Origin: Antedon mediterranea
Lineage: Eukaryota > Animalia > Echinodermata
Assembly (NCBI RefSeq): GCF_964355755.1
Contig: NC_092673.1
Span: 36,081,648 to 36,145,647 of the forward strand
Length of the DNA: 64,000 nucleotides
Direction: 5' to 3'
In this document: positions 4,410 through 32,300 of the stretch, in pieces
How the letters are laid out: every line of letters starts with the position of its first letter
How positions within the stretch are numbered: the first letter of the stretch is position 1
The notes under the pieces: model-generated
The model's database searches: none
What the model was told of the DNA's origin: nothing
The model's input: only the letters and a program-made list of their open reading frames with translations
Program-made: the position numbers and the translations under genes

Positions 4410-7400
4410 ATGATGAAATCATCCTGCATTCCAGGTTTTACACCTCAGCTTTCCCCTCTACAGGAGGAAGAAGAATTGAATGTTCTTTCAGATATTTTAT
4501 ATTCTCATGGTAGACGTCTTCTTGAAGATGAATTATGGGCAGTTTGTAAAGAGAGCGTTGTATCATTAAAATCAATTGAAGGTACAAAAGGAAGATTTAG
4601 AACAATATACCTGTGTCCAGAAACCATAGCTTTTAGCAAAGATGGAGCAATTACTTACAAACCAGCAAGTAAGTTTTAAATATCTTTAATTTATACATAA
4701 CAAAAATTATTATTTGAAAATAATGGCTTGCATAATAAAAGGAACCTTGGGACATGTTTATTTGCCACCAAAGATGTTGACTAAATACCAACACAATACG
4801 TTTAAAGTGAGACAAATTTTTTTCTGAAAGATGATACTTGATATACAAATAGAACAGCTTGAAACTTTTACCTTTTGTGAAGAACAGCTTGACAAAAAGG
4901 ATTTTTGTTACGCCGCTATAGATACATTGAAACTTATACATGGTTACCATAGCATTAAAGTCTTTGTTTTGATTGGCAAATAAAGTCTATTATTATTGCT
5001 TACTTATTTTTCTAGGTAGGTTTCAGTTGGTTTCTCGTTGTGTTGTTTCTCGTAAATTGGTTTTCTACAATAAATCATATTATTTTCAATTTATATTTTT
5101 TAGCAATTTATTCTTGTTGTTATGATACAGTTTTTTGCTTGATGTGTCATCTTTTCTTTTCAATTTTGTTATCATTTATTATTCATGAATTTGTCAGCTG
5201 ACGGTGGTAATAGAACAGTGAGCTTGTCTACTAAAAATGAAAGTTAGTAGCATAACATTTTGTGGAAGTTAGTAGCATAACATTTTGTGGAAGTTAGTAG
5301 CATAACATTTTGTGGAAGTTTAGATTTTAATTTAAACTATGGTTTTGATGATGCATTGTCTTTTTATGGTTCTATTAAGACCAACTCTAAGAAACCCACT
5401 CTAATACCAATCTTTTTACAACAGATTATATGGAGGTTTCGTTGATATGCTTGATTGGTTTCAGTTGAAGTCGGCAAAAAGTAGCTTTTTTAATCAATAT
5501 TTATTAGGAGTAATCTTTTATTAGTAAAGATTAGTTGTTATTTACCATGCATGGCAGCACATACTACCCATGCTATTCTTCTCTTATGAGTGGGTCCTAT
5601 TGATTACTTGGCTTCTTCTCTTATGATCAAAGTTCTTAATTGTTCAAAATAGTGTACTTAGCATTCTAAGAAAACAGCTAAGTATTGACAATCAATAGCA
5701 ACAAACAAACATGGGTTAAATGAACATGTACAACTTTTGTTTGCTTTTCTAAACATACTACCACCTTGGATAAGAGACATTATCAAGTATGCTAATCATG
5801 AATAGAGTGACAGTTATAACATGGCAGTCAGTAGTCATTAAAGGTAACAACAAGTAATAACTTATGAAATGTTTGCTCAGACTACTTTTTTGTCATCAGG
5901 AATTATCATTTTGAGAATTCTATGTGGATGTTTTAAGTGATTTAAATTGTAAGTATTCAATTTGTTAAAACTAAGAATTTGGATGGTAATTTCAAAGCAG
6001 TTTCTATACATAATCAGTTACTATAGCAAATTGTGGAGCACATTGTACCAAAAGATAAATTATTTTATGTCCTACATAAAGGGGTTTCTAATACAAAAAA
6101 TCCCAATTATTATCATATCAGTGTGTATCCAACAAGATGGTTGCCTTCAATAGGCAATATTAATGTCTTAGTTGATTATAAATATTTACATTTTTGTTAA
6201 ATTTATGAGAAAATATATTGAATGTTCTTGTTTTCAATTTGTTTTAATTTCATAAACTTTTGTCAAGATTGTGAAGATAGTGAATACCTGCCCCCAGAAT
6301 ATGAAATATGTGGTGCATCTTTTGAGGTAATTTTGTATTTTATATTATTATCCATGGGCAACAAACAAACAAAGTATAATATTCAATGTTGTTGTATACT
6401 TAAGATGTATTGTCCTCCAAAAACATAAAAAATGATGATTAATAAATCAGACTTTAAATAGGCCATTTTGCAGTTTTAATAATGTTATTCACTTCTGTAA
6501 AAAAAAATAGAAACAAATATTATTTCACTTGTAAAAAGACAAAATAAATGTTTAATTTTAACCAAAAACCATTTTCTGATGACAGTTAAATATTTTTTGC
6601 TTTAAATTGCATTTGTATCAGGTAAATAATTTTTGGTCAAAGTGAATAACTTTAACTAATAATAATATTATTATGTGACATTAAAATGGCATATTAAACA
6701 AAAAATCGAAAAAAAAATGTGTTAGGGGGACAATATATCTTTAATAAATGCAGCTATAGATTTCTAATGTTTGTACACTGGAGTCTAATTGTGTTTCAAT
6801 GAATACTAAACATCAATAACAATCTCAGCTTGGTAAAGTAGGTTTCCTGTTTTTTGACATCATTGATCATCACATAATCCTGTATCATCTGATTGCATTC
6901 ATGAGAAAGTGTTTCTTGTTGCGAGTAATAGTAACCTTGCATTTTATTATTGAATCTGCAAATAGAAACTGTCAAATGTGAGGGAAAGATTTTGACATAA
7001 ATATATATTGATCTGAGTGTACGAGAACTGTGAAGAATGCTGTGTGTAAACAACCATATCTATTAGAGAATATGTGCATTGTACGTAGAGTAATATACAA
7101 TCGTAGCAGCTTTACAATTTAGAATTGTGTGAACACAACTCTTTGGTACTGCAGGCATGTAGTTGAATTATGGAACACACTCTATTTGACTCAAGTATTT
7201 CACTTCCTTCTTGCTGTTTATTTATCTGAAAATCAACTTGTGAATCAATTTGCTGATTAATTGTTTCTGGATAAAAATAGAAAATCTACACCTGCTAATT
7301 GCTGATTGCTGTTATTTTTGGGACCTGAGTTAATTAGATTTTTATTCTAGATAGGACAGAAGAATGATTTTTTTAACAATTGATTTGAGAAATTACAGTG

Positions 7401-10400
7401 AACCATCAATGGCAATACAAAGTAATTGGAGCAAATACAGATAATTTTGAGAGACCGTACATACAAGTTTTTGATTTATGATTTATGTACCGATAATAAC
7501 TACAGCAAGATGTCAAAAGAAAATATTGTGGTGTGTTGAAATTTAATTTATGTACAGTACAGTACAGTATTTATTTATTTATTTATTTAAATATTTATTT
7601 TTTTTATTCATACTAATGTGTATTTAAAATTGTACTAATCCATATAAAACACATTCATTTCTTGGCTACTAAATAATTTAAGTTAAAACATAGCACCACA
7701 TTCTGTACGATTTATTAGACATAGACTAGAGTGGACTTCCTGTGTAAAACGAAGGCAGCTGAACATGCTGGTTGATTGATCACAAGTTCCATGGCAACAG
7801 AAAATATAACAAATTTAAATTTACACATTTTCTGCATTGTTGTTTACCGCTTTACGTGAGGACAATATTGCAATGTGGTTTATTTTGTTTACTATACAAA
7901 ATTATTTCATTTCACAATTTTAAGTGTTAGCATTTTATTATTTGTTCTCAAAATCCTGCTTCTAACCTATTTACGTACTACAGTTTGTTTAACAGAAGAA
8001 ACTTATCCTATTATTTTAGAGTGAGTGAGCACTTGTATCAGAGTTATTGTGATCATTATGGCTACCACCTGCAAATAATTAAATTTTGTTCTAATAGGGT
8101 CACCTGTACTCACTAGCTCTTTGCCTATTGGAAGCAGCCGAATTTAATTTACCAGCAGAACAACAAGTTGAGATAAGTAATGGACTTCTTGGGTTAGTAA
8201 CTCTAATGACCCTAGATGATCCTTCAAGAAGACCATGTTATGAGGAAATTATTACCACATGTGTAACTCATCTTGAAGACAAATCATCTCAGGAAATTTG
8301 TAGAAAACTATCTTCAATTGGAAAAAGTGTCAAATCACAAGAAATTAATTGTAAGTTACTTTATTGAATAGTTGTACACATGATGAAATGAAAAATGGGT
8401 TTATTTAATCCGCACATTAAATGTTTTAGATTAGGAATAAATTTGGCTTGTTTACCAGTAGCTATTTTCTTTAAATTTCAGCACAACATAGGAGAAGTAC
8501 CATTGGAGAAGATGGCAATGATCAAAGTGTTTCACAAGTAGAAAAGTATCTACACCAAATCAAACTGAATGAAAATTTAGGGGAACATTCAAAGAAAGTT
8601 GCAATACAAGATGATTTTGAAGAACTAATTGAGGACACCATGACCTCTAAGGAGGACGGAAAAAAATCTGGTGCATATGATACTCTTTCACAAAGGGCTC
8701 AGGAAATACTCAAGGAGATCTATTCAGGCACAGAAACTCCACAAGATTCTGTATCATGTTTAAAGTCTGAAGAAACTTCACCAATTGAAGGCCAAACTGC
8801 TACAAAAGAAACATTACCAAAGCAGGTCTTGTCTATTGCTAACATTTTACAAAATAGAGCATTATTAAGAGAATCAAACACGTTCAGAAAATATTCCAGC
8901 AGTAATGATATTTCTACACAATTTGTACATAATAGTGATAGAAAGAACATTGAATGTCTTGAAAAATCTTGGAATGAAAAAGATTATTTGGATTCACCTA
9001 CTAAAATCACTAAAACCAATGAACAGCTTTGTGAACAATCAGGAAGAAAGTTACAACCTTCAACAACTCAGCATAATTGGAAAAAAAGTTTACATTTACA
9101 CACAACTAGGAATGAAACTAATTTGTGTGATGGAGAGGAAAGTATTCCAGAAAATGAGGAAAAAGTTAAGCATTCAATCTGTTCAAAAGAACATGGTGAA
9201 GAATTTGTTGTGCATGACCCCAGTTCCTCATCTGATTTACCAAATCCAGTGTCATTTAAAAGAACCACATACTCACACAGTATGTTTCACAAACATTCTT
9301 CATTAAATAAAGAAAGGGATGCTTTTAATGCAGGTCCAAGAGTAAGTGGTAGATTAAAGACAAACAGCATACATTCTTCAATGATGTCGGAAGAATGTAT
9401 TGAAGATAAAGGAAGAGCTACACTTCCACAGGCCTACTCTTCTAAAGCCACACATTTTACTCCTATTGTGATCTCTTCAGATAAATCTAAGACTGAAGTA
9501 AAGCAGAACACGTCACCAGTTAGTGTTGTCAAGTTGAAGGCTAAAATTGCAATGGAGGCAATAAAGAAAGGTCCTCAAATTCCAAAGAAGGTTCCACCAC
9601 CTGCTACCATGCTTACTGATCTGGAAAATGATGCCGCAAATGAGGATAGTAATTTTTCAGAAAATATAAGTCACTCCAACCAGGATAAACCAATTATACC
9701 AACAAGTATTGATTCATTATTAATTGTTGAACATATGGAACAGTCTTTTGCTGGTACTCAAAGTAATGGAAATAAACAACATGAACAAGATTTACATTAT
9801 GAGTCTATTGTACCTTTAACATCAACCTCTTTTAAACCAGTCAACAAAATAGATACTGGTGATGCATTCAACAACTCAGAAACTTTAAAACATAACCACA
9901 TGCTATCTGATTCAACAACCATGGAAAATGAAACAAAATCACCCGGAGAAGAGGCAGCTTCTGTCTCAATGCATGGGTTTAGACAGAATACGGCTTCTAA
10001 CTTATTAAGGCCATCATTTGCTTCTTTGACGTTTCCAGTTGCCACTTCTGTGCAATCATTAATTCCTGCCATTCCTGTTTCAAATTTGGTCCATGCAGTT
10101 CCTTTCAATTTACCATCAACTCAAAGAATGGCATCAACAGTTCAAAAGACACCAGTCAATAATGTTTTGTTACGACCAACAGTTCCTTCTTTAGGTGGAT
10201 TATCTTCAAAAACACAACCTGCCAGTAAGGAAATAATTCACCAATTACCAAATATCTCTGGTCCTATGCAAATTTGTCAAGATCCACATACTGGATTCTT
10301 CCATATAATTCCAGTTGAAATTCCAGGAACTGGCACAGTACCTATATTACAGTCTTCCTTTGCACCAGATGTTGAAGCAGTTTCACCAAACACTTTGAAT

Positions 10401-13400
10401 TGCTCGTTATCACCAATTTCCACAAAAGAAATTCCGACTACATTCTCAGCTAAAACTGATCTTACAGGTTTACATAGTTCAGCATTTCGTCCAATTGAGC
10501 CACATTCAAATAAAACAAACACAATTGCCACTAACAGTTCATCTTTCATTGCACACAAATCTTCCAAACATGCCAAAGACTACTTGCAAACTGGTAAAAC
10601 AAAAAGTACTGGTACTAACAAAGATATAAGTAAAAAGGAGTATCGTAAAAAGTTGGACAAGAAGGTTTTAGTAGTTTCAAAGTTACCTTACAGAAAAGTC
10701 AATCATGAAACTGACTCTGAAAGTAGTGAATCCACATACCATGATCCAAATGTACGTATGCCAAGGTACATGAAAAGAACAGTTAAGTCAAATCATGGTT
10801 TTCAGGAATCTGAGAAATGTCGTAGTAAATCACAAGGTCGAACATTAAGAAAGGAACGAGAACGAAGTAAATCACGAGAGCGTGCAAAATCATTAGACAG
10901 AAAATCACATGAGAAACTTGTTGGACCTGAAACAAAAGTTGTAGTAAAACCTGTTCATAAACTTAGCCAAGATAAACTTGAGAAAAGGACAAAAATGGAA
11001 GATGTCGATGATACAAAGCCAATAGATGCTTCTAATTCACCAACATCTGTATCAATTGTATCACGTGATAGTGGAGTTCATATGAGATATAGCCATTCAA
11101 GTGGTGAAGATGCAACAGGACTTACGGTTTATAATCCTCTGAAAGATGCATTAGCTGGTAACAATATGTTAAGAAAAGTTGTAAAATTGGTCAGAGTTGC
11201 TTTTGCGTTTGATGGGTATTTAGAAAATGGTGTTGAAGACTTACAAATGGGTAAGTTTGTTTTAATTTTGTATCTTCTAATAATTAAATTGTTTACATTT
11301 TCTAATAACAGTCAAATTTAAATTTGTTGGTTTACTGTTCAGGCGAGTATATTGTATCCCTTGCACACTTGAGATGGATGACTTTTGTCAGTGCAATAAC
11401 AGAGAAGTTTTGTGACCTTTACTGGGAAGAGGATTTACTGGAAAGTCTTTATGAAGTGGTGAATGGCAGTTTGCCAAGAAAGTCACAGAAGTAAGTATTT
11501 TAACTGCTACTATGTTATAATAAATTTTAATGATTTTCTTATAAAAACTTAATGAATGTTATTATGATGTTTACTGGTAAAGTAGCAGACCAATGCAAAT
11601 GGTTGGCATATTCTGTATGAACCCTCTTCTGTAGATTTTTTAGTCAAACGTTGAATAGATAAAATTACATTTTTTTTTCAGACCTCTTGCTATGAGCCCA
11701 AGTAGACCAAGACGTAAAACAGAACCAATCATTTTATCACCTAGCAATACACCAGACAATCTTGACAGTGATGACAATGCTTCAATTATTGATGATCTTC
11801 TTCCGGCAGACAACACTTTCATCAAAAAAGGAACCAAGAATAGCAAAATACTAAGATCTAATGTTGTTGCTCATGCTGAATTGTTTAAAAGACAACAAAA
11901 ACCAAAGAGTAAAAAATCTAATGACAAGACAACCAAAGTAAAAGGAGTAGATCCTAAGGATTTAACAGACAAATTGAGTGAGCTTGAGAAAAACACGAAA
12001 GATAGATTAGATGATGCACCTGTAGTCACCTCACGACAGAAGAAAAGACATAAAAATCATAAGCACAATGATAAAAATGTACAAGAACCAATGGAACCCA
12101 TTCCAGAAAAAAGTAAAGAATCAACTACAGAAAGTAAGAGCTTAGATTTCAGGCAACATGACCTTAGCAAATCTATGAGTAGTATTGCAAGTGGTTCTTC
12201 TTTTGGGTCTTCATCAAAAAGTTTGCAGGATTCCAGAGATCGATCAAAATCTGGGAGTTATGTTGCAAGCGAAGGATCAGTAAAGTCAGCAAGTACAGAA
12301 AACTGTGGAAAAGAACACATTTTACAGACTCATAGAAAGCCAAAGATGTTGGCAACATCATTACCAAATCCAACAACTCTTGTACGGCACAGTTCAGAAT
12401 CCAGTTCCAGTTCTGGTACGGCAACCAAGTATAAACTAAAGTCCATCATGTTCAATCACAGACTTACAAAGGCTGATAGTTCTCTATCTCTGATTAGTGG
12501 AGCATCTTTAACAAATACTAAAGGTCTTGTTGATTCTAAAACAGACTCTATTTTATCATTGCCAAGCTCTGTGTCAACTGGGGATAATTCTCAACTTCTG
12601 TTGAATGCTGGTGTCATGTATGGTGATTTGGCTGTAGATCCAATTGTTGAGGATTACACAAACAAACTGGTTGTTAACTGTGAAACACAGCAAGGTATTG
12701 AAGTTAAAATAGGGGTAAGTTATTATTATTTATATTTTTCTAAACACCATAAATGTATGGTATCGTATCCGGATATTCACCCCCTGGACATTTACCTCCC
12801 GGAAAACTACTCCCCCCCCGGACAACAACCACCTGGACCACTACCCCCTTAGGACAACTACCCCTTTAGGACAGCTACCCCCCGGACAAATACCCCCTTA
12901 GGACAACTACCCTTTTAGGACAGCTACCCCCGGACAAATACCCCCCGGACAACTACCCCCTTAGGACAACTACCCCCTTAGGACAACTACCCCCTGGACA
13001 ACTACCCCCCGGACAATTACCCCCTAGGAACAATTACCCCCTAGGAACAATTATCCCCCGGACAATTACCTTCCCCCCCCCCCCCGGGTAATTACCCCGC
13101 GGACAACTACCTCTGACACAATACTCCCCGTAGGACAACTACTTCCTGGACAATACTCCGAGGGCAAATAATCTTTTAGGACAACTACCTCCGTAGGACA
13201 ACTAACCCCTGGACAACTACCCCCGGACAATTACCCCCTAGGAACAATTACCCCCTAGGAACAATTACCCCTTGACAATTACCCCCGGACAATTCCCCCC
13301 CCCCCCCCTCGGGTAATTACCCCGCGGACAACTGCCTCTGACACAATACTCCCCATAGGACAACTACCTCCTGGACCTGGACAATACTCCGAGGGCAAAT

Positions 13401-16400
13401 AATCTTTTAGGACAACTACCTCCGTAGGACAACTAACCCCTGGACAACTACCACCCAGAAAACTATACCTTTAGAACAACTAACCCCCGGACGGACAACT
13501 ACCACCCAGACCATTCAACAACCTGACTCTGCAACAGCGTATAATAAGAATTAATAACTATATTTTATTTCGTTACTTTGACGAATTACTATTCATTATT
13601 GTAAACAAAAGTAAAAGATTGAACATAAATATAGCCTGGTATAAACTGAAGATTGTCACACATGATCATAGGATAGTCGAACGTATTATATAGTACTCCC
13701 TGTATTTACTGTAAAGACTGGGTTCGCTAATAATAATAATAATTTTTGCGTCAGGACAATGCTTCGATAACCACTGGTCTTAAAAGAATTAATTTTTGTC
13801 TCAAATTTGTCATTTGTATTTTTGTACACTTGAAGAATAATATCACTTTTGATATTTGACCTCAATGTTCACTCACCGAATAAACGGCGATCTTTAAATA
13901 AATTCCCCTCAAATAAACGGTGACCGTACCATGTCACTCCCATGACACATCATATGGAATAATCGGCGTCTATTTCCATTAGATTATACCCCCTCCCATT
14001 GAATAAACAACTTTCTTCCAATAAATGTCCACCTAAAAACCACCTAAACAATAAACAGCCCAGACCGTTTTTTCAATAAATACGGTACTTTAAATCTAGC
14101 ACATCTAGGGTCTAGCGTGCTGTTAAACAGAATAATCGGTTAAAAACGGGTGTTTCGAAACTAGAGACCCGAGACCAGAGACCAGAGATCCGAGACCCAA
14201 TACGAAAAGGGAGACCTAAATATACGAAAAGGGAGACCCACGTACAAAAAGGGAGACCCCACTATACGAAAAGGGAGACCCCACTATACGAAAAGGGAGA
14301 CCCCACTATACGAAAAGGGAGACCCCACTATACGAAAAGGGAGACCCTAATATACGAAAAGGGAGACCTAAATATACGAAAAGGGAGACCAAATATACGA
14401 AAAGGAAGACCCAAATATACGAAATGGGAGACTCAAATATACGAAAAGGGATACCCACTATAAGAAAAGGGAGACCCCCCTATACGAAAAGAGAGACCAC
14501 ACTATACGAAAAGGGAGACCCTAATATACGAAAATGGAGACCCAAATATAGGTCTCCCTTTTCATATTGGGTCTCGTGTCAGGTCTCTGGTCTCGGGTCT
14601 CTAGTTTCGAAACACCCGTTAAAAACAGATGATTTCATTTTTACAGAAACCGGTCCTATATAGGCCTATTTGTCTACTTTTAGATTGGGGGGGGGGGTAG
14701 TTGACCGGGGGGGTAGTTGACCGGGGGTGTAGTTGACCGGGGGGGGTAGTTGACCGGGGGGGGGTAGTTGACCGGGGGATAGTTGACCGGGGGGGTAGTT
14801 GACCGGGGGGGTAGTTGACCGGGGGGGTAGTTGACCGGGGGGTAGTTGACCGGGGGGTAGTTGACCGGGGGAGTAGTTGACCGGGGGAGTAGTTGACCGG
14901 GGGAGTGGTTGTCCTAAGGGGGTGGTTGTCCTAAGGGGGTGGTTGTCCTAAGGGGGGTGGTTGTCCTAAGGGGGGTGGTTGTCCTAAGGGGGGTGGTTGT
15001 CCTAAGGGGGTGGTTGTCCTAAGGGGGTGGTTGTACTAAGGGGGTGGTTGTACTAAGGGGGTGGTTGTCCTAAGGGGGTGGTTGTCCTAAGGGGGTGGTT
15101 GTCCTAAGGGGGTGGTTGTCCTAAGGGGGTGGTTGTCCTAGGGGGGTTGTAGTTGTCCTAGGGGGGTTGTAGTTGTCCTAGGGGGGTTGTTGTTGTCCTA
15201 GGGGGGTTGTTGTTGTCCTAGGGGGGTAGTTGTTGTCCTAGGGGGGTTGTTGTCCTAAGGGGGTAGTTGTCCTAAGGGGGTAGTTGTCCTAAGGGGGTAG
15301 TTGTCCTAAGGGGGTAGTTTTTCCGGGGGGTAGTTTTTCCGGGGGGTAGTTTTTCCGGGGGGTAGTTTTTCCGGGGGGTAGTTTTTCCGGGGGGTAGTTT
15401 TTCCGGGGGGTAGGTTGTCCGGGGGGTAGGTTGTCCGGGGGGTAGTTGTCCTAAGGGGGTAGTTGTCCTAAGGGGGTAGTTGTCCTAAGGGGGTAGTTGT
15501 CCTACTAAGGGGGTAGTTGTCCTACTAAGGGGGTAGTTGTCCTACTAAGGGGGTAGTTGTCCTACTAAGGGGGTAGTTGTCCGGGTGGTAAACATCCGGG
15601 GGGTAACTGTCTAGGGGGTAGGTGTCCTAGAACCGTTCTTTCAATGTAATATCTTTCTCAGACATGTAAAAGTATAATGTGTAGGTCCAGTATTTATGCT
15701 GTGATGTTTGTATTTGATAGGTTATAGATCAGGAACTCATGATGGAAAGAAAGATGCGTTCAAAATCACAGAAGTTTTATCATAAAATGTTGGAGGCCCA
15801 GCAAACAAAAGGTAATTTAAGTTGCAATCATTTTACTATATTCATTTATTTTAAAATGTTGTAGGAAACATTTATGTTTAAATTTTACAGTGTAATAATA
15901 AGAATATAATAGTATCAATAGGCTAAATAATAATTGAAGTTGTTGTTACTTGTAAAAAAATACTAAAAAAATAAGAAAAGATGTCTTGAAATTAACTATA
16001 CAATATTATTGTTTCAATATGAAAGCAGCGTTTCCAAAATTAGAACCAGCTCTCCATGAACTTTTAACATCACTATCTCAGAATGGTAATTGTTTGGTAA
16101 CAGCAAATAATTGCTTACTATTAAGAATTTGCTTTCTGTGTTAATTTAGCATGCATGTTAAACATGATGAAATATTGTGGAGTTTGAAGCTACAGTTTGC
16201 ATTTATAGTTTAAATTTAATCTTGATATTTTGTGCATTGTGTGTCAACAAATATATTTAATTTTAATGTATGTTTGTTATCCCTTTTGTTTTATTAATGT
16301 CTATAGCTCCACCTGCTAATTACTGTTATTATTATGTTTCGTATTGCTATTTTCTGTTATGGCACGGCATGCACTGTTATGTATCATTCAATTCATTTTC

Positions 16401-19400
16401 ATAAAGCAATGTTAAAATTTGTTTGTATGTGTGTGATGATATTTTTAATATGTTATTGAAGTTTTTTTTAGAATTTAATGTAGCTAAGTTTCTACCGCTG
16501 CCTTGAAAGTGATGATGATAAAATTTGCTTGATTTTAAATATACAATGCTCAGATTCTAAAATTCTGAACTGTTTTTTTCTACAGGAACAGATTATAAGA
16601 CTATGGTAATTAGAGTTGGAAAAGAAATTGATGAAATGACAAATAAAATTGAATTTCTAGAATCTGCAAAACGTCATCTAGAGATGCTTTATTCCGAGCA
16701 GTGGGGTCTAGACCATTCCTTACTATACACATTTGCAACAAGGTAATATTTTAACAACATGTATATTTAATATGGCTTATTTTGATCATGTTTGTATATG
16801 TCACTCGCAAACTGAATTTTTGTTATTTCAGTATGGGACAGGAACCAATGTATCTTCACCATAGTCAGGAAGAATGTCCTTTGCTGTTGTTTCATTATAT
16901 AAAATCAGGTTCAACTTTGCAGGCAGGAGAGCCACTTGGACTATTCTCATACCTTTATGCCAGGTAAAGTTTGTCTACTTTATATACAATAATAGCACAA
17001 TCAAATTTGTGAGCTTGCATGTTGCTCTGTATGTGGAAGGTGTAATATTTATATAAAGTGTAGTAAGAGCCAACTAATGCTACTCATAATTCAAGTCATA
17101 GTATGTATTGATACTGTATAATAATGGTTCTTTAAATTGCTTTTTTGTTTTCAGACAAGCGCTTCTGGATGGTTACATTCATTATTTTTTCTCTACCTAC
17201 CACTACTATGCAACAACAGATGAAATATTTAAGTTCATTGTCGATAAATTCTGTGCTGCCAGAAGGTAACCATTTTTAAACAATATATCTGCTGTATACC
17301 TATTAAGGGTAATCAAACACAAATTTCCAAATTAATATGATAAAATAAAATATTTCTTTTGATATTTCAGTATGAGCTCAGCTCAGGCAGAAAGCAGAAC
17401 TAAAATCTTGTGCCGGACAATTGATATTCTACAAGTATGGATTGAGAATTACTATGCTGTTGATTTTCGACCAAACTTAAATCTTGTTAATCAGTTGACA
17501 GATTTTATTACAGAAAAGGTTAGACATAAACTTCTCTATAATACATACATACAAAATAAAAAGCTAATGATTTAAAGTTACTCTGTATTCAATAATGCTA
17601 TTTGCTATGCTATTTTATATAAATCAATTGAAGAATTTTATAGTTTTATCTCAATTTTATAGGAATTCATGTTGTTTTTGTGTGTTATTCATTTTATGTA
17701 AGTATGTCTATGTGAAGAGCCTCTTGACGGTTATTTTTATTTATAACTTTTAGGTGATCCGGCCTCATTTATTTACTTTTATGTTTTTTTATGTCTTACT
17801 TTGTACTGACTGTATATTGGCGAAATAAATGATATGATATGATATTTATTTATTGGAGTGCGTTTGTAATCAAATCAGGAAAACCATTACATTAGTTTGG
17901 ATGTGGTTATAATAAAAAGGGTGAGAATTATTTAAAATGCGTAGAAATTTTATTTATAATTAGATCTATGTTTGAATAATGCATTATGATATTGTTTGTT
18001 TTTACAGATAATATCTGTTGATGCACAGGGTGAATGTTTGCTGAAACTGTTAAAGAAATGTCAACAAGAAAAAGAAAAGGATATGTTGTTGGAAACATTA
18101 AGAAGACATCAGGAATGTGGAAATCATGCTAAACCAAAGAAAGTAAGTTTAGAATTAACCAAGTCATGATAAACCAAAGAAAGTAAGTTTAGAATTAACC
18201 AAGTCATGCTAAACCAAAGAAAGTAAGTTTAGAATTAACCAAGTCATGCTAAACCAAAGAAAGTAAGTTTAGAATTAACCAAGTCATGCTAAACCAAAGA
18301 AAGTAAGTTTAGAATTAACCAAGTCATGCTAAAGCAAAGAAAGTAAGTTTAGAATTAACCAAGTCATGCTAAACCAAAGAAAGTAAGTTTAGAATTAACC
18401 AAGTCATGCTAAAGCAAAGAAAGTAAGTTTAGAATTAACCAAGTCATGCTAAACCAAAGAAAGTAAGTTTAGAATTAACCAAGTCATGCTAAACCAAAGA
18501 AAGTAAGTTTAGAATTAACCAAGTCATGCTAAACCAAAGAAAGTAAGTTTAGAATTAACCAAGTCATGCTAAACCAAAGAAAGTAAGTTTAGAATTAACC
18601 AAGTCATGCTAAACCAAAGAAAGTAAGTTTAGAATTAACCAAGTCATGCTAAACCAAAGAAAGTAAGTTTAGAATTAACCAAGTCATGCTAAAGCAAAGA
18701 AAGTAAGTTTAGAATTAACCAAGTCATGCTAAACCAAAGAAAGTAAGTTTAGAATTAACCAAGTCATGCTAAACCAAAGAAAGTAAGTTTAGAATTAACC
18801 AAGTCATGCTAAACCAAAGAAAGTAAGTTTAGAATTAACCAAGTCATGCTAAACCAAAGAAAGTAAGTTTAGAATTAACCAAGTCATGCTAAAGCAAAGA
18901 AAGTAAGTTTAGAATTAACCAAGTCATGCTAAACCAAAGAAAGTAAGTTTAGAATTAACCAAGTCATGCTAAACCAAAAAAAGTAAGTTTAGAATTAACC
19001 AAGTCATGCTAAACCAAAGAAAGTAAGTTTAGAATTAACCAAGTCATGCTAAACCAAAGAAAGTAAGTTTAGAATTAACCAAGTCATGCTAAACCAAAGA
19101 AAGTAAGTTTAGAATTAACCAAGTCATGCTAAACCAAAGAAAGTAAGTTTAGAATTAACCAAGTCATGCTAAACCAAAGAAAGTAAGTTTAGAATTAACC
19201 AAGTCATGCTAAACCAAAGAAAGTAAGTTTAGAATTAACCAAGTCATGCTAAACCAAAGAAAGTAAGTTTAGAATTAACCAAGTCATGCTAAACCAAAGA
19301 AAGTAAGTTTAGAATTAACCAAGTCATGCTAAAGCAAAGAAAGTAAGTTTAGAATTAACCAAGTCATGATAAACCAAAGAAAGTAAGTTTAGAATTAACC

Positions 19401-22400
19401 AAGTCATGCTAAACCAAAGAAAGTAAGTTTAGAATTAACCAAGTCATGCTAAACCAAAGAAAGTAAGTTTAGAATTAACCAAGTCATGCTAAACCAAAGA
19501 AAGTAAGTTTAGAATTAACCAAGTCATGCTAAAGCAAAGAAAGTAAGTTTAGAATTAACCAAGTCATGCTAAACCAAAGAAAGTAAGTTTAGAATTAACC
19601 AAGTCATGCTAAAGCAAAGAAAGTAAGTTTAGAATTAACCAAGTCATGCTAAACCAAAGAAAGTAAGTTTAGAATTAACCAAGTCATGCTAAACCAAAGA
19701 AAGTAAGTTTAGAATTAACCAAGTCATGCTAAACCAAAGAAAGTAAGTTTAGAATTAACCAAGTCATGCTAAACCAAAGAAAGTAAGTTTAGAATTAACC
19801 AAGTCATGCTAAACCAAAGAAAGTAAGTTTAGAATTAACCAAGTCATGCTAAACCAAAGAAAGTAAGTTTAGAATTAACCAAGTCATGCTAAAGCAAAGA
19901 AAGTAAGTTTAGAATTAACCAAGTCATGCTAAACCAAAGAAAGTAAGTTTAGAATTAACCAAGTCATGCTAAACCAAAGAAAGTAAGTTTAGAATTAACC
20001 AAGTCATGCTAAACCAAAGAAAGTAAGTTTAGAATTAACCAAGTCATGCTAAACCAAAGAAAGTAAGTTTAGAATTAACCAAGTCATGCTAAAGCAAAGA
20101 AAGTAAGTTTAGAATTAACCAAGTCATGCTAAACCAAAGAAAGTAAGTTTAGAATTAACCAAGTCATGCTAAACCAAAAAAAGTAAGTTTAGAATTAACC
20201 AAGTAATGCTAAACCAAAGAAAGTAAGTTTAGAATTAACCAAGTCATGCTAAACCAAAGAAAGTAAGTTTAGAATTAACCAAGTCATGCTAAACCAAAGA
20301 AAGTAAGTTTAGAATTAACCAAGTCATGCTAAACCAAAGAAAGTAAGTTTAGAATTAACCAAGTCATGCTAAACCAAAGAAAGTAAGTTTAGAATTAACC
20401 AAGTCATGCTAAACCAAAGAAAGTAAGTTTAGAATTAACCAAGTCATGCTAAACCAAAGAAAGTAAGTTTAGAATTAACCAAGTCATGCTAAACCAAAGA
20501 AAGTAAGTTTAGAATTAACCAAGTCATGCTAAAGCAAAGAAAGTAAGTTTAGAATTAAACAAGTCATGCTAAAGCAAAGAAAGTAAGTTTAGAATTAACC
20601 AAGTCATGCTAAAGCAAAGAAAGTAAGTTTAGAATTAACCAAGTCATGCTAAAGCAAAGAAAGTAAGTTTAGAATTAACCAAGTCATGCTAAAGCAAAGA
20701 AAGTAAGTTTAGAATTAACCAAGTCATGATAAACCAAAAAGTAAGTTTAGAATTAACCAAGTCATGCTAAAGCAAAGAAAGTAAGTTTAGAATTAACCAA
20801 GTCATGCTAAAGCAAAGAAAGTAAGTTTAGAATTAACCAAGTCACGATAAACCAAAAAGTAAGTTTAGAATTAACCAAGTCACGATAAACCAAAAAGTAA
20901 GTTTAGAATTAACCAAGTCATGATAAACCAAAAAGCAAGTTTAAAATTAAACAAGTCATGATAAACCAAAAAGTAAGTTTAGAATTAACCAAGTCACAAT
21001 AAACCAAAAAGTAAGTTTAGAATTAACCAAGTCATGATAAACCAAAAAGTAAGTTTAGAATTAACCAAGTCACGATAAACCAAAAAGTAAGTTTAGAATT
21101 AACCAAGTCACGATAAACCAAAAAGTAGGTTTAGAATTAACCAAGTCACGATAAACCAAAAAGTAAGTTTAGAATTAACCAAGTCACGATAAACCAAAAA
21201 GTAAGTTTAGAATTAACCAAGTCATGATAAACCAAAAAGTAAGTTTAGAATTAACCAAGTCACGATAAACCAAAAAGTAAGTTTAGAATTAACCAAGTCA
21301 TGATAAACCAAAGAAAGTAAGTTTAATGTAATGTAATGTTGTTCGATTTATAAAGCACTTATACAATCAAAAGATTGTCCCAAAGCACTAAGAGAAAAAA
21401 CAGAAAGAAATTACAAAGAAAAAAGATTGGTTTTTAAGAGTGTTTTTAAAACTATGATAAAGGATGCATTTTTGATAGTTTAGGAGTATAGCTTATCCAT
21501 TTCCCCAGATGTGCTTGTTCTGCATCATGTATGATTAATTGGATGTATTGGAAGCATGGAGTAAATAATTACTCCAGGCTTAGAAGTGAAGTAATGAAGG
21601 TTCATCGTTTTCTTATTGTCTCTTTATAGAGGTACTCTATTCGAGAAGTATTGAGTGTTCCATCACGTGCACTGCGAGCTGAAAAGATGCCCAGTGGCGT
21701 TGCATCATGCTTTTCAGCAGCACATAAGAAAGAGTCTATGGAGACACAGTCTATTTACATACCTGTACAATCTGGTGATAAAGAATTTACAATGAGTGAA
21801 CACACAGCACAGAGACTGGCATACCAGCTTACACTTATGCAACAGGTAATTTATATTTACATACTTCATCTCTATTCCAAAATTTCACGTCATGTATTTC
21901 TACCTCGATATTTAGATCTTGTCAATGCAGTTTAAGTTTAAAAAACAATGAATCATTGGAATAGTGTAGCTTGGGCTAGGCATGGGTTAGGTTAGAGTAA
22001 TATTACACTGATATGAGCATATAAGTGCACAAACTCATTATTCTACAGGAATTGTTCCGTAAGGTCCATCCAGTACACTACCTAAACTCTCGCTACAATG
22101 GTATTGGTGTCGGCATGGAAGTGGATGTATCTTTGTCATCTCCTTCCATATCTCGTGCTGAGGTAGAACAAGACTATCCTAACTTGTTTGTTAATACACT
22201 CGGTGATGAGGGACTTGTTCATATACAGTTGGAGCATGCTCGTGAAGTGTCACACTGGGTTGCGGCTGAGGTTGTTACATCAGTTAGTCAAAAGGTAAGC
22301 AAGTGTCACACTGGGTTGCAGCTGAGGTTGTTACATCAGTTAGTCAAAAGGTAAGCAAGTGTCACACTGGGTTGCGGCTGAGGTTGTTACATCAGTTAGT

Positions 22401-25400
22401 CAAAAGGTAAGCAAGTGTCACACTGGGTTGCGGCTGAGGTTGTTACATCAGTTAGTCAAAAGGTAAGCAAGTGTCACACTGGGTTGCGGCTGAGGTTGTT
22501 ACATCAGTTAGTCAAAAGGTAAGCAAGTGTCACACTGGGTTGTGGCTGAGGTTGTTACATCAGTTAGTCAAAAGGTAAGCAAGTGTCACACTGGGTTGCG
22601 GCTGAGGTTGTTACATCAGTTAGTCAAAAGGTAAGCAAGTGTCACACTGGGTTGCGGCTGAGGTTGTTACATCAGTTAGTCAAAAGGTAAGCAAGTGTCA
22701 CACTGGGTTGCGGCTGAGGTTGTTACATCAGTTAGTCAAAAGGTAAGCAAGTGTCACACTGGGTTGCGGCTGAGGTTGTTACATCAGTTAGTCAAAAGGT
22801 AAGCAAGTGTCACACTGGGTTGCGGCTGAGGTTGTTACATCAGTTAGTCAAAAGGTAAGCAAGTGTCACACTGGGTTGCAGCTGAGGTTTTTACATCAGT
22901 TAGTCAAAAGGTAAGCAAGTGTCACACTGGGTTGCGGCTGAGGTTGTTACATCAGTTAGTCAAAAGGTAAGCAAGTGTCACACTGGGTTGCGGCTGAGGT
23001 TGTTACATCAGTTAGTCAAAAGGTAAGCAAGTGTCACACTGGGTTGCAGCTGAGGTTGTTACATCAGTTAGTCAAAAGGTAAGCAAGTGTCACACTGGGT
23101 TGCAGCTGAGGTTGTTACATCAGTTAGTCAAAAGGTAAGCAAGTGTCACACTGGGTTGCGGCTGAGGTTGTTACATCAGTTAGTCAAAAGGTAAGCAAGT
23201 GTCACACTGGGTTGCGGCTGAGGTTGTTACATCAGTTAGTCAAAAGGTAAGCAAGTGTCACACTGGGTTGCAGCTGAGGTTGTTACATCAGTTAGTCAAA
23301 AGGTAAGCAAGTGTCACACTGGGTTGCGGCTGAGGTTGTTACATCAGTTAGTCAAAAGGTAAGCAAGTGTCACACTGGGTTGCGGCTGAGGTTGTTACAT
23401 CAGTTAGTCAAAAGGTAAGCAAGTGTCACACTGGGTTGCAGCTGAGGTTGTTACATCAGTTAGTCAAAAGGTAAGCAAGTGTCACACTGGGTTGCTGCTG
23501 AGGTTGTTACATCAGTTAGTCAAAAGGTAAGCATCACGCTACAAATTTAGTTGTTATGTTTCTATTTGAATACAATCATATTTCAAATGTACATAAAAAC
23601 AGAGGTTTTTTTTGTTTTGAAAGATACCATGTTCAACTGGTGTAAATTAAAATCTTGTTCATTGTGAGATAAAAATATTACATTTTTCGTTATTTTTTCA
23701 AGTACCAAACAGCAATCCTGTGTAAGTTCATAATGATAGCTAGAGAGTGCTATGATATGAGGAATTTAGCCACCTGTATGCAGATTATTGATGCTCTAGA
23801 AAGCCTGATTGTAAGACAAGTACCGGTAGGTTTACATACTTGTGTTGCTTTTTTTTTTTATCAAATAAATTAAACTCATGGAGTCGCTATGTAAACTGCA
23901 CTACTACAAAGTTCTCTCTTCTTAAAGGCCTGGCGGAATCTTCCAAGTAAGATTGGAAGTAGTTTTGAAAAGTTAAAGGCGGCCAAAATCATTTTGAAAG
24001 GTGATGGAGAAAGCCTAATAAAGAATAACATTCATCATGACAAACCTACATTACCATGTTCATTGTTCCTACTGATGCATCTACAAAGTGCTGAGATCGG
24101 TGGATTCACACTTGCTAATGGCATGTATAAGTGGACAAAAATGAAGTAAGAATAATTTATATCTTTTTATCTCATTAAACATATTATTTATCGATTGACT
24201 AAAAACACTAAACTAATAAAAATCATTTTGTAAAAATTGATTGAAAAATTTACTGCATATAAAATGTTGCTCAAGTAGTGCAAAAATTCATTCTACTGTA
24301 TATTGCACAATTGTACACAGTTTGTAAACATATTTTGTTCAGGCTGACTGTCAAATAGGCTACTACTAATTGTACACAATTGTACACAGTTTGTAAACAT
24401 ATTTTGTTCAGGCTGACTGTCAAATAGGCTACTACTAATTGTGCACAATTGTACACAGTTTGTAAACATATTTTGTTCAGGCTGACTGTCAAATAGGCTA
24501 CTACTAATTGTACACAATTGTACACAGTTTGTAAACATATTTTGTTCAGGCTGACTGTCAAATAGGCTACTACTAATTGTGCACAATTGTACACAGTTTG
24601 TAAATATATTTTGTTGAGGCTGACTGTCAAATAGGCTACTACTAATTGTGCACAATTGTACACAGTTTGTAAACATATTTTGTTGAGGCTGACTGTCAAA
24701 TAGGCTACTACTAATTGTGCACAATTGTACACTGTTTGTAAACATATTTTGTTCAGGCTGACTGTCAAATAGGCTACTACTAAGTGTGCACAATTGTACA
24801 CAGTTTGTAAACATATTTTGTTGAGGCTGACTGTCAAATAGGCTACTACTAATTGTGCACAATTGTACACAGTTTGTAAACATATTTTGTTCAGGCTGAC
24901 TGTCAAATAGGCTACTACTAATTGTACACAATTGTACACAGTTTGTAAACATATTTTGTTGAGGCTGACTGTCAAATAGGCTACTACTAATTGTGCACAA
25001 TTGTACACAGTTTGTAAACATATTTTGTTCAGGCTGACTGTCAAATAGGCTACTACTAATTGTACACAATTGTACACAGTTTGTAAACATATTTTGTTCA
25101 GGCTGACTGTCAAATAGGCTACTACTAATTAACTATTTTAACTTTTATTATGCAAATTTTCACATTTTCAAGTAAATATTTCAGATACACTTAGTGTAGT
25201 TTATGCAACATTTTCTTACTTTTTCAGATCTATTGCAAAACTTGTCGACCAGATTAGAGTGTTCCAGAATCATACTTTTACCTTTGAATCTGACGCTGAA
25301 CTTCAGGAGTTGCTACAGAAACGCATCCTTCAAATGAATGACCATGACATACACTCATTGGCTGCCCAGCATTCGGCTAATTTTCACCAGCTTGCTTCAG

Positions 25401-25465
25401 AAAAGAGCTCAAATCGTTTTAAAGTAGCGTTTAAAAAAGTTAAACATTACACTGAAACTTTTTAA
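4410..25465 (+). CDS. KNDC1: KIND-domain RasGEF (very-KIND / KNDC1), 17 coding exons
   Basis: Phase-consistent GT-AG exons: 4410-4668, 6268-6326, 8098-8350, 8482-11250, 11343-11490, 11682-12714, 15721-15811, 16586-16742, 16832-16963, 17155-17265, 17371-17518, 18008-18142, 21630-21845, 22049-22294, 23703-23825, 23928-24145, 25228-25465. N-terminal KIND motifs (LSDIL...LLEDELWAVCKE, YLPPE, GHLYSLA), the KNDC1-like block FAFDGYLENGVEDLQMGEYIVSL...ITEKFCDLYWEEDLL, REM (ILQVWIENYYAVDF) and RasGEF (LAYQLTLMQQELF, VSHWVAAEVV, RNLATCMQII) segments. Confidence 0.9.
5242..5320. repeat. 25-bp tandem repeat x3 in a KNDC1 intron
   Basis: aagttagtagcataacattttgtgg repeated three times. Confidence 0.85.
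6400..6744. mobile_element. Non-autonomous TIR element with TTAA flanks (Kolobok-like MITE)
   Basis: Left ttaa-gatgtattgtcctcc and right gggggacaatatatct-ttaa are imperfect inverted repeats. Homologous copies in this window at about 26646-26900, 34560-34787 and 37254-37576 (inverted) share ttttggtcaaagtgaataact...gacattaaaatggcatattaaacaaaaa. Superfamily call is inferred from the TTAA target and purine-start termini. Confidence 0.7.
12764..15635. mobile_element. Foldback-like element with long, internally repetitive inverted arms
   Basis: Left arm (about 12764-13510) is made of ggacaactacccc(c)-type 15-17-mers; right arm (about 14688-15635) is made of the reverse complement gggggtagttgtcc-type units. 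It fills most of KNDC1 intron 12715-15720. No clear target-site duplication and no transposase ORF. Confidence 0.75.
14148..14617. mobile_element. MITE with 9-bp target-site duplication (Mutator-like), nested inside the foldback element
   Basis: TIRs gggtgtttcgaaactagagacccgagaccagagacc / ggtctctggtctcgggtctctagtttcgaaacaccc. Perfect direct repeat gttaaaaac at 14139-14147 and 14618-14626. Interior is a 22-23-bp tandem repeat (tatacgaaaagggagacccca). Confidence 0.85.
18124..21325 (+). repeat. 40-bp (38-bp distally) tandem array, about 80 copies, spanning a KNDC1 exon end and 5' splice site
   Basis: Unit tcatgctaaaccaaagaaa|gtaagtttagaattaaccaag; the first copy is the real end of exon 18008-18142. 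Confidence 0.95.
22245..23532 (+). repeat. 56-bp tandem array, 23 copies, spanning a KNDC1 exon end and 5' splice site
   Basis: Unit aagtgtcacactgggttgcggctgaggttgttacatcagttagtcaaaag|gtaagc; donor GT at 22295 + 56n up to 23527. Confidence 0.95.
24305..25130. repeat. 69-bp tandem array, about 12 copies, in the last KNDC1 intron
   Basis: Unit cacaattgtacacagtttgtaaacatattttgttcaggctgactgtcaaataggctactactaattgt(g/a); the period is divisible by 3, which explains the repetitive minus-strand ORFs. Confidence 0.92.
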
Positions 25466-27055: not shown

Positions 27056-28603
27056 ATGGCGGACTCGGTAATAAAAACGATCATTTTAATGCTACTGATA
27101 ACTTTACTCAGTGTTGGAAATGGCCGACATACACATAGACGGAATAAAACTAGAGGCGACCCCAAGAAGAAGAACGTATTAATAATGTTTGTTGACGATG
27201 GTGGATTTGAAAGCCCAGTGTACAATAATACAGTCTGCAAAACTCCAAACTTGTCCGCATTTGCTAAGCGTAGCGTTGTATTACGTAGAGCCTATACATC
27301 TGTGAGCAGTTGTTCACCAAGTCGCTCTGCTTTACTCACTGGACTACCACAGCATCAGAACGGTATGTACGGATTACATCACTCATTCCATCATTTTGAA
27401 TCATTTGAAGGAGTCAAAAGTATCCCACTGATTCTAAAGGACCATGGTGTTCGGACGGGCATAATTGGTAAGAAGCATATAGGGCCTGATGACGTTTATA
27501 AATTCGATTACGAAAGAACAGACGAACATTACAGTATGTTACAAGTTGCTAGGAACATCACTAACATGAAAATTCTTGTGAATGAATTTCTATCCATGGA
27601 TGATCGTCCGTTTTTCCTTTATATTGCTTTCAAAGATGTTCACAGATGCGATGCAGGTATTGAAAAATATGGACAATTTTGTGAACGATTTGGAAATGGT
27701 AGCCAAGAGACGGGAACTATTCCAGATTGGAAACCAGCATATTACGACCCATTTGACGTCATTGTGCCATACTTTCTACCCGACACATTGGCAACCAGAC
27801 AAGAAATTTCAGCACAGTATACGTCGGTCAGTAGAATGGACCAAGGGGTCGGACTTTTCCTAAACGAACTAAAATCGTTGGGGTTCCTTGATAACACGTT
27901 GGTTATCTACACTGCAGACAATGGTATACCTTTCCCTAACGCAAAAACAAATCTGTACGAAAGCGGCATGGGTGAACCAATGATTATATCATCTCCTATG
28001 CACACCGAACGTTGGGGTGAGATTAGTGATGCTATGGCCAGTACTATTGATATTGTACCGACAATACTAGATTGGTTTGGAGTTGACTACCCATCATACC
28101 TCCTTAATGGTGTCACTGTGAATCTGAGTGGCAAATCTTTACTTCCAATATTGACTTCTGAACCAACAACGGGAGAGAAGTTTGATGAAGTGTTTTCCAG
28201 TCATGATCTACACGAAATAACAATGTACTACCCAATGAGAGTTGTACGCAATCGTCAGTACAGACTAATACATAACCTGAACCACGCCACGTCATATCCG
28301 ATCGCACTCGACATTTTCATGTCCCCAACATTCCAAGACACGTTAAACCGATCCCATGAAGGAAAGCCAACCAACTGGTTCAAGTCTTTACACCAGTATT
28401 ACTATCGACCAGAGTGGGAACTGTACGATGTCAACAATGATCCACAAGAATTGACCAACTTGATAGATAACTCGACACTGGCTGACATGGTGAAGAACCT
28501 GAAGACCAGCTTACAGGCATGGCTAAAAGAAACCAATGATCCGTGGCAATGCCTACCTAATGGCGTGTTAGTTGGGTCTGAATGTTGGCCTCTTTATAAC
28601 TGA
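27056..28603 (+). CDS. SGSH: N-sulphoglucosamine sulphohydrolase (sulfamidase)-like, single coding exon
   Basis: 515-aa ORF with hydrophobic signal peptide, NVLIMFVDDGGFES, formylglycine motif SSCSPSRSALLTGLPQHQNGMYGLH, RTGIIGKKH, YTADNGIPFP, HEITMYYPMR, YYYRPEWELYD and TNDPW. Probable 5'-UTR exon ending at 26441 (AAG|gtatgt). Confidence 0.95.
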   Translation: MADSVIKTIILMLLITLLSVGNGRHTHRRNKTRGDPKKKNVLIMFVDDGGFESPVYNNTVCKTPNLSAFAKRSVVLRRAYTSVSSCSPSRSALLTGLPQHQNGMYGLHHSFHHFESFEGVKSIPLILKDHGVRTGIIGKKHIGPDDVYKFDYERTDEHYSMLQVARNITNMKILVNEFLSMDDRPFFLYIAFKDVHRCDAGIEKYGQFCERFGNGSQETGTIPDWKPAYYDPFDVIVPYFLPDTLATRQEISAQYTSVSRMDQGVGLFLNELKSLGFLDNTLVIYTADNGIPFPNAKTNLYESGMGEPMIISSPMHTERWGEISDAMASTIDIVPTILDWFGVDYPSYLLNGVTVNLSGKSLLPILTSEPTTGEKFDEVFSSHDLHEITMYYPMRVVRNRQYRLIHNLNHATSYPIALDIFMSPTFQDTLNRSHEGKPTNWFKSLHQYYYRPEWELYDVNNDPQELTNLIDNSTLADMVKNLKTSLQAWLKETNDPWQCLPNGVLVGSECWPLYN

Positions 28604-29384
28604 TGGAGCAGCCATGTATCGCACAATAGCACAATTATTACATTCATTGATATTCTAAAATACTACCTCATTTTTTTCTTAACGGCTAAAACAATCCATG
28701 ACATGTTATGGATACTGGCCTTATTATTATTATTATTGTTATTATTAATGTGAACTTGCAATGGTATATTGGCATGCTTCGTATATTTAGGGCTTACGCC
28801 TATTATGTATTATGGTATATTATGTATTTTCATACATTTTCATAATATTATTATAAAGAAACTTTATTTGTATTGTAATAAACACAGTAGCCATGATTTT
28901 CTTTTAAGTCATTTAATATTAATAAGCATCAGGGTTGTATAACAGTACGGTAAATGGTTTAAAATTAAAAACAATGTAAATACTACCGTTTTACCATAAT
29001 GCACGGATGCATGCATGAATGTTGTACCGGTTTACCATAATGCACGGATGCATGAATGTTGTATATAGAAGTACTGTAGTTTGTTGAATGATGTTACTGA
29101 ACCAATTTCACAAACATATCAGTTACATCGAATATAGTAGACTATTACTCCTTGGTACATTATCTGACCCATTTAAATCGTGAAATTATCGTAAATTATT
29201 ATTCACGATCGATATCGTGAAACACAGTTACACTAAATGTTAATAATGAGCCACCTGCTATAGTGACTGTCTAATTCACCCCATCATTCTCTTTTTTTTT
29301 AACGTCTCTCGATGCCACTGTGCTTGCCAGGTCATTGATCCATCGAGAGCGACATCATTTTTCAGAATGATAACATTCATGTGC

Positions 29385-32300
29385 TTATTTACATGAAAGA
29401 AGTCCAAATGGGTCACTAATGTCATTCTGAAAGGTACAATATGAAACGTACCCGAATTTATTCAGATGATTATACTTGCATATAGATGTTTCGAGTAATG
29501 TATAGATAATTACCTGGTGAGGAGGCGCTTCAGTTGACAGACTCGTGAAAGAGAAGTGTTTGGCATAGCGCGAGTACTTGAGAATCGCTGCTAAATTCCC
29601 ATCCACAACTGTCCGAGTACCAGTCTACAAAAAGAGTGTGTTACGGTAAATCACATCCAACCTAAATAGTCAAACTTTTGATTGAGATTAATTTACATAC
29701 TGCAAATATAGTACTACTCACCGTGAAAGTAACAGAGTTGTCAAATACTAACTTATCCAGGTGGTCTTCGGTTCCATTAAACTTCACTTCAGATTCCGTC
29801 GATTTACCACTGGCTTCTGGCGGTAACTTAAACAGTCGACACGTGATCGACGCATACTGGATATCACCTTTTTATTTAACAATAGAGAGTTTTGTTAAAA
29901 AATAGAAATTTTCGTTTGTTTTAAATATTTTTATATTAAAAGCTGAACAGACATACCAACCAGTTCTTTATATTCGGGCTTGTTGACGTTAATTTTACGT
30001 ATTGCATAAAGTCGTGGACGCGTAAATCCCACTTCTTCGGCAATTTCAAGCAATTGAGACCAGGTGAGTGCTCCAGCCAATCCATCACCTGTAATAAGAT
30101 TGTAAATCAGTAATTGAAATTAGTACTTTCTTTTATGCTTTACAGAGAAGATAGTTCATTTCATTGTTGATGTAGTCCTAAACTCGATCATATAATGGTC
30201 GATAATAAAAATTATCAATTCTCTGAGGCAATCCTATTTGGAACAAATCACAAATTAAACATGTATAAACAATTAATGTCCAGGTTTATCACTCGATCAG
30301 TAATTAAATTGTGAACATTTGAATAGAGTTATTAGTACTAATTCATTCTCCCCAGATATTAAATGTAATTTTTATTTCAAACCTACTACTTACCCCAAAG
30401 TGATTTGTTTGTCTTCAAGGTGTCTGGAATCGGCTTATTAGCATACATATCGCTAAAAAAGATCTCACCTCCATCTTTTAAAGAAGTGTATGCTTCTTTT
30501 AACACTGACCGTTTATCGGGCGATAGGTTTATTACGCAGTTGGACCTATTATATTAACATTTAAAAAATTAATTTTGAGTGAAATGAGTGACGATGTGGT
30601 GATCCTATAATTAGTGGGTTAGGATAGGAAATGGGTTATTATTTAATAATAACGAATGATAATGGAGGATCTATGCAGTGACTCGAATCGGACATTATAT
30701 TGTACAATCGATGCTGTTACTGCCCCACATGTCTGGCAACCTTTAACATATTGTAGACGGATGATAATTGCCAATAAGTAATAGTTTGAACTTACACAAT
30801 AACGTCAAATTGGTTAGCCTTAATTCCAGATGCAGACAGCTTCTCTATATATCCTTCCTTAAAATCAACATTACTCTCGTTGTATCCGAATGCTTGGCAA
30901 TGATAGTCGACGTATTTCTTAGCAAAACTTAGCTATATAACATTAAAACATACATTGTGGTTAAGCATTTAGAAGTTTTATAAGTGTGTGTATCGCTTGT
31001 ATTTTATGCTGGTCGTCATATCATTGTCAGCGATGACCTCATAATTACGAAGACAACATAGTCCATAGACATTGCATTATTAGTTCGTTCAAATTCAACA
31101 CTAACGTTATAATTTGTTTTTGAATTTTGAATCTGCTGGTGGGGCACTGATTAGAACATTGGACTCTCATTGGTTCCTTCCAACCAACCCAGGTGACAAA
31201 AATTAGCACTGGTATTTTTACTGACTCAGACTGGTGTAACACTCACAAACATGAACAGTACTATCAGTGGAGGTCTGCTCTAAACGGTCAATGAAATGGA
31301 GATAGGTAGGCAGCACGGTGGTTAGATAGGTACGGTAGGCAGCACGGTGGTTAGATAGGTACGGTAGGCAGCACGGTGGTTAGATAGGTACGGTAGGCAG
31401 CACGGTCGTTAGATAGGTACGGTAGGCAGCACGGTCGTTAGATAGGTACGGTAGGCAGCACGGTCGTTAGATAGGTACGGTAGGCAGCACGGTCGTTAGA
31501 TAGGTACGGTAGGCAGCACGGTCGTTAGAAAGGTACGGTAGGCAGCACGGTCGTTAGATAGGTACGGTAGGCAGCACGGTCGTTAGATAGGTACGGTAGG
31601 CAGCACGGTCGTTAGATAGGTACGGTAGGCAGCACGGTCGTTAGATAGGTACGGTAGGCAGCACGGTCGTTAGATAGGTACGGTAGGCAGCACGGTCGTT
31701 AGATAGGTACGGTAGGCAGCACGGTCGTTAGATAGGTACGGTAGGCAGCACGTTCGTTAGATAGGTACGGTAGGCAGCACGGTCGTTAGATAGGTACGGT
31801 AGGCAGCACGGTCGTTTTAGAAGCTTCGATTTCGACTTTACCCTTAGGCTTGGTTCTCACTAGGACGCACCGCAACGACACAAGCAATTTGACCAATCAT
31901 GACGTGTAATTGGTCAAATAACTAGTGCGTTGCGCGTCGCGTCCTGATTCCCAAGTGGGAACCAAGCATGTGTGAATTGGAATATAGGCCTTACAAACTG
32001 GGTCCTCTTGTAGACTACCTCAAAATTGTGATTATTGTCAAATTACTTGTTTAATTGATAAATGAAGGCTTACCAGTTCGTCGGTCATATCAATACCAGT
32101 GACATGACCATTTGGTCCAACCATCTTGCTAAGTAAATAGACATCTCGCCCTGTCCCACATCCCAAGTCAAGCACATGAGCCTCAAGTAGACAAGAAGGC
32201 AGAGGTAAACCACATCCAAAATATCTGGTGTAAGAAATTAAGATAAAAATAACTGGTGTAGCTAAACCTGAGGGTATCACTATCAGTATATATTTTGTAT

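Follow-up and report, generated by a model that had tools for sequence, protein, structure and literature searches.

A 23-copy minisatellite over an exon end and its 5' splice site in a presumed KNDC1-like gene of Antedon mediterranea

The DNA analysed (the window, 64,000 nt of A. mediterranea contig NC_092673.1) carries a head-to-tail array whose unit joins the end of a RasGEF exon to the 5' splice site (donor) that follows it. The array is most probably a young minisatellite that likely arose by local duplication and grew by slippage or unequal exchange; it is likely tolerated, with splicing likely favouring the first donor by position, and is likely neutral. We regard it as a likely by-product that the cell puts up with, probably using mainly the first signal.

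Sequencing runs were compared as assembled contigs, six of nine listed runs, on two stretches each holding about one unit. X2 and X4 came from one sample (S1), probably the source of the assembly, which they check without being independent of it, and X5 is a second sample. X6, X8 and X9 came from a close relative, organism B, X6 and X8 being DNA runs and X9 being taken as RNA on account of its spliced joints. X5 was taken as RNA by guess and may contain DNA; no run is on record as RNA. The features used below, all on the forward strand, are as follows.

4412..25465, + strand: host gene model of 17 coding exons, with a frame of about 2110 codons that stays open solely when each array is spliced from its first donor; KIND, RasGEF_N and RasGEF domains.
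18124..21325, + strand: second donor array, in the host gene, about 81 copies of 38-40 nt, each made of 19 nt of exon end, GTAAGT and intron; absent from organism B.
22049..22294, + strand: RasGEF exon, number 14 in the gene model, whose final 50 nt belong to copy 1; spliced contigs from X5 and X9 cover it.
22245..23532, + strand: minisatellite of 23 x 56 nt, the unit being the final 50 nt of that exon plus the 5' splice site GTAAGC.
22263..22264, + strand: sole CpG of the 56-nt unit (positions 19-20), the dinucleotide holding 8 of the 9 array substitutions.
22295..22300, + strand: first donor, the sole frame-keeper among 23 by frame analysis.
22352..22354, + strand: TAA in frame for transcripts reading beyond donor 2, by frame analysis.
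23477..23532, + strand: last copy, which adjoins the ancestral intron and alone carries GCT (copy alignment and the relative's intron).
23527..23702, + strand: ancestral 176-nt intron, alignable to the array-free intron of the relative in X8 and skipped as 176 nt by a joint in X9.
23703..23825, + strand: next exon, RasGEF positions 67-102, E 2e-7.

Single exons of the host gene gave Pfam matches to KIND (E 0.0054), RasGEF_N (E 3e-6 and 0.0012) and RasGEF (E 2e-7, 23703-23825), and only the last clears its Pfam cut-off. The exon 22049-22294 alone matched positions 12-61 of RasGEF PF00617 (E 0.096), adjoining the profile positions of the next exon. From the domain order KIND, RasGEF_N, RasGEF, we take the gene to be KNDC1-like (v-KIND). 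A homologue search among proteins of up to 2000 aa, with the exon that bears the array as query, found none.

The alignment of the copies and TRF (period 56, 98% matches) agreed on 23 full copies, each of 50 nt of exon and 6 nt of intron, as the earlier note had described them. The repeated exon end encodes VSHWVAAEVVTSVSQK. The exon makes up 89% of the unit, which stops right at donor position +6, and the array borders share a 1-nt microhomology (A) at 23533. The consensus was matched exactly by 15 of the 23 copies, and donors 1-22 have an identical 50 nt upstream and an identical sequence downstream. The earlier note had put the coding-derived part of the intron 22295-23702 at 88%; this figure is correct as the share of the array (1238 of 1408 nt), while the exon-derived part comes to 1100 of 1408 nt, or 78%. 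It had also held that the intronic copies vary almost only at one position. Eight of the nine substitutions were indeed clustered, but over two adjacent positions, with six G>A and one G>T at position 20 and one C>T at position 19 (six GCA, one GCT and one GTG), and the ninth, a G>T, was found at position 30. A near-palindrome, AGTGTCACACT, opens the unit at the duplication breakpoint (22246-22256); it could have aided slippage or could be there by chance.

The age of the array was read from organism B, whose exons differ from the window by about 4% (18 of 462 letters in X9). In X8, an unbroken contig of 6834 nt takes in the upstream exon, one unit and then a 176-nt intron, so that the comparison with an orthologous intron proposed earlier yielded a single unit and no array. 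In X6, an unbroken contig of 10,782 nt crosses both array sites, with a single 56-nt unit. Since the relative holds a single unit, the 56-nt array is young, and both arrays in the KNDC1-like gene would have arisen after the split from organism B, precise loss in B being less likely. A single unit stands in place in the relative, and no other copy of the unit was found outside the array within the window, as expected of a local origin. The seed would have been one local duplication spanning the exon end and the donor, which would have left copy 1 on the exon and the protein untouched and placed all extra copies in the intron; slippage or unequal exchange would then have lengthened the array.

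Frame analysis bore out the claim that donor 2 shifts the frame and that later donors run through a stop codon. Donor 1 alone among the 23 preserves the reading frame. Donor 2 adds 56 nt (56 mod 3 = 2), which shifts the frame and leads to a stop in the next exon, and donors 3-23 all include the TAA at 22352-22354. Transcripts with such premature stops are expected to be degraded under the established rules of NMD. Because donors 1-22 are alike on both sides, nothing but position (how far a donor lies from the upstream acceptor, or the order of transcription) can single out donor 1; donor 1 would be preferred by position, and transcripts from later donors would be NMD substrates. In predicted RNA structures, donor 1 was equally or less accessible than the other donors, and masking of the later donors by RNA structure was dropped as an explanation. 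Recursive splicing at AG/GT was likewise set aside as improbable on sequence, the unit having AAG and no pyrimidine tract.

Spliced joints that leave out stretches of 176, 102 and 203 nt, each with GT..AG ends, were found in X5 and X9, and in X5 the spliced joint to 23703 had a depth of 47.7. The upstream contig of X5 is 5566 nt long, of which 5124 nt lie upstream of 21630 (5293 coding nt in the model), and it passes unbroken through the exon junction of the 40-mer array. Since the assembly word exceeds the 19 nt of repeated exon there, the continuity of this contig, the letters of which are not shown, implies first-donor use at the 40-mer array. X5 contigs cannot be phased through the 56-mer array, because its 50-nt repeated exon part exceeds the 31-letter word.

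One result speaks against a clean first-donor reading, namely the depth of the array junctions in X5. The contig over the unit junction had a depth of 142.4 and the core contig a depth of 112, while the spliced contigs on either side had depths of 19.2 and 47.7. The excess may come from pre-mRNA, retained intron, DNA, a longer allele or distal donors. A leaky array, in which a sizeable share of transcripts uses later donors or keeps the intron and is destroyed, so that array length tunes the output of the gene, is unlikely but is the best of the alternatives. It would fit the junction depth, which, were every junction to stem from mRNA, would amount to about 3.4 for each spliced transcript, the strong identical donors (AAG/GTAAGC), the lack of any X5 contig over the unique parts of the intron, and the use of downstream donors in the precedents of IFI6 and CBS described below. 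Against it, the RNA nature of X5 is a guess, and copy number multiplied by unspliced pre-mRNA accounts for the junction depth equally well. Contigs lose side paths of low depth, and the missing intron carries no weight. If the copy numbers of the assembly hold, the array junctions reach about 7 per copy, equal to 15-38% of the depth of the spliced contigs. The comparison with the 40-mer array depends on the divisor, the per-copy level there being 0.8 with the consensus 40-mer (9x lower) or 5.6-6.7 with the 38-nt variant, which is the record X5 has for this array and gives the same level as the 56-mer array. A more specific version holds that 15-40% of the RNA of the gene carries the array through later donors or a held intron, that a rapidly changing repeat sets the RasGEF dose via NMD, and that feather-star genomes seed repeats preferentially at splice junctions; we consider it somewhat less probable again. 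X5 held only the 38-nt variant of the 40-mer array, a weak hint that the make-up of that array differs between animals.

The variable codon is likely explained by decay of a CpG. Deamination at CpG yields C>T and G>A, and eight of the nine array substitutions fall in the sole CpG of the unit; three of the four distinct variant types lie within 2 of 56 positions, for which the chance is about 2e-4 in this post hoc test. CpG o/e was 0.30 in the KNDC1 coding sequence and 0.85 in the intronless sulfamidase gene of the window. The low value would be consistent with gene-body methylation, for which we found no supporting paper. Variants would then have arisen by deamination of methylated CpG and spread through turnover of the array; the six GCA copies may go back to one event.

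The earlier note had proposed that gene conversion from the array could feed variants back into the exon. Twenty-two near-identical templates adjoin the exon, so that conversion or unequal exchange is mechanistically possible, and the array variants would yield A>V, V>F or synonymous changes. In the two samples seen, however, the exon has kept its sequence at this site and no array variant was seen to have entered it: the X5 upstream contig ends at 22274 with zero differences from the window, and GCG was found in both X2 and X5 (0 differences at the site). The change tallies point to G or A, not T, as the letter of the relative at this site. As eight of the nine substitutions sit at the sole CpG of the unit, the variants are the expected products of CpG decay, and a role of the array as a variant reservoir for the exon is quite improbable. 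The T of the last copy was also considered as ancestral, with conversion into the exon, and was rejected, as no G>T was counted there in X6 or X9 in tallies that leave differences at piece ends unlisted.

The 56-nt array is not an assembly artefact. The earlier note had named absence from the reads as grounds for giving it up, and multi-copy or junction contigs of the array were present in X2, X4 and X5. In X4, which is DNA-like, a cyclic unit contig had a depth of 4055 against 291 in the flank, or 14x, where the assembly predicts 17.9x; the difference is at most a hint of copy-number instability. In X2, the repeat records, which overlap, total 44x the flank, and the unit junction was also present in the second sample, X5. 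An artefact is extremely improbable, since multi-copy unit contigs (X4, X2), the X5 junction contig and internal variants in non-random order outweigh an exact copy number taken from one assembly and the shortfall in depth. An A>G change (Gln>Arg) was seen at 22170 in an X2 contig and is likely a heterozygous site of S1.

The array belongs to a class already described, the splice-junction minisatellites or 'mirages'. It has a head-to-tail unit of minisatellite size, it covers a real exon-intron boundary with a reiterated splice signal, and it is of local derivation. In amphioxus, repeats at exon-intron borders were named mirages and were described in Adh3, the globins BflGb6 and BflGb9, troponin C and PGBD5, reportedly without disturbance of splicing (PMC3087553, PMC3902484). 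Compared with those accounts, the present array comes from a crinoid, is dated by an array-free close relative, and has near-identical copies and a unit that is 89% exon. The 37-bp VNTR in intron 7 of human F7 has 5-9 identical donors; splicing takes only the most upstream of them, and loss of that donor activates the next (PMC1557585). The two cases share a first unit that bears the exon-intron junction and identical donors downstream. They differ in copy number (23 here), in the longer exon part here, and in that donor choice was tested in F7 and is a prediction here. As summarised in PMC1557585, the minisatellites of CBS intron 13, LMNB2 and PDGF are listed alongside that of IFI6 (6-16), which has 25 pseudo-sites of which two are used; in IFI6 and CBS, two downstream donors are used as well. 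These genes carry 10-25 reiterated donors, a number similar to ours, whereas every later donor in the KNDC1-like gene either shifts the frame or runs into a stop. No crinoid case of a splice-junction minisatellite was found in the literature searched, which lay mostly outside subscription journals.

Four junction-spanning repeats besides the 56-mer were found in the window, one of them in the host gene. The five arrays that cross a splice site are the 56-mer, the 40 x 81 array (donor, same gene, where it fills 3183 nt of a 3487-nt intron), the 122 x 7 (donor) and 40 x 110 (acceptor) arrays in one intron of a presumed MAK16-like gene, and a 99 x 2 array (donor) in a minus-strand gene. Five of eight TRF arrays thus cross a splice site, against 2.0 expected by random placement outside exons (P = 0.024, a small post hoc count over 4 modelled genes and 30 introns). 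The count set aside a gene at 29300-32230 (minus strand) with an intron-internal 29-mer array, the dispersed-type cluster at 12809-15630, UTR and intergenic arrays, and microsatellites. The excess at splice sites is a hint, and part of it is probably accounted for by short introns and by survivor bias, because the exon comes through unharmed when a duplication spans its donor. The junction-spanning arrangement is nothing unusual for this genome.

The two arrays at 45645-50950 (+ strand) belong to the gene that we call MAK16-like, which has a Pfam match to Ribosomal_L28e. Repeats fill 5139 of the 5202 nt of this intron, where the acceptor array keeps TAG in 104 of 110 copies and every internal 122-mer forms a 94-nt pseudo-exon between tttcag and gttagt. 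An older two-copy duplication of 99 nt over a donor (GTATGT) lies at 41727-41921 on the minus strand, in a gene presumed to be ADP-ribosylhydrolase-like.

At 21326-21478, a dispersed repeat of high copy number (about 780x flank depth in X2) abuts the end of the 40-mer array, and organism B has 34 other letters there. On the minus strand it closes with an (ATTAC)n-like tail, which we take to resemble an L2/SINE 3' end, and the repeat may have had a part in seeding the 40-mer array. In a KNDC1 intron, two clusters of GGACAACTACCCC-type repeats in opposite orientation flank a 22-nt array at 12809-15630 and look like a dispersed element family. For the further minisatellites at 24304-25130, 31305-31816, 38273-38742 and 59024-59711 (69 x 12, 29 x 18, 20 x 23 and a hairpin-rich 56 x 13), no overlap with a splice site was seen. 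The intronless sulfamidase (SGSH-like) gene at 27057-28603 (+ strand) is possibly a retrocopy; its protein is closest to those of crinoids, with 81% identity to Anneissia japonica as the best of 120 matches listed, and crinoids have several sulfamidase paralogues.

As it stands, the 56-mer array is a clean, datable example of a described class of repeat and has little significance. The MAK16-like intron, which requires both the first donor and the last acceptor, is the better test locus. If the leaky reading were true, this genome would hold many natural tests of position-based donor choice. The 22 donors of identical context, the array-free relative and the marked last copy would offer a natural experiment on the weight that position alone carries when a 5' splice site is chosen, in an invertebrate whose introns are short.
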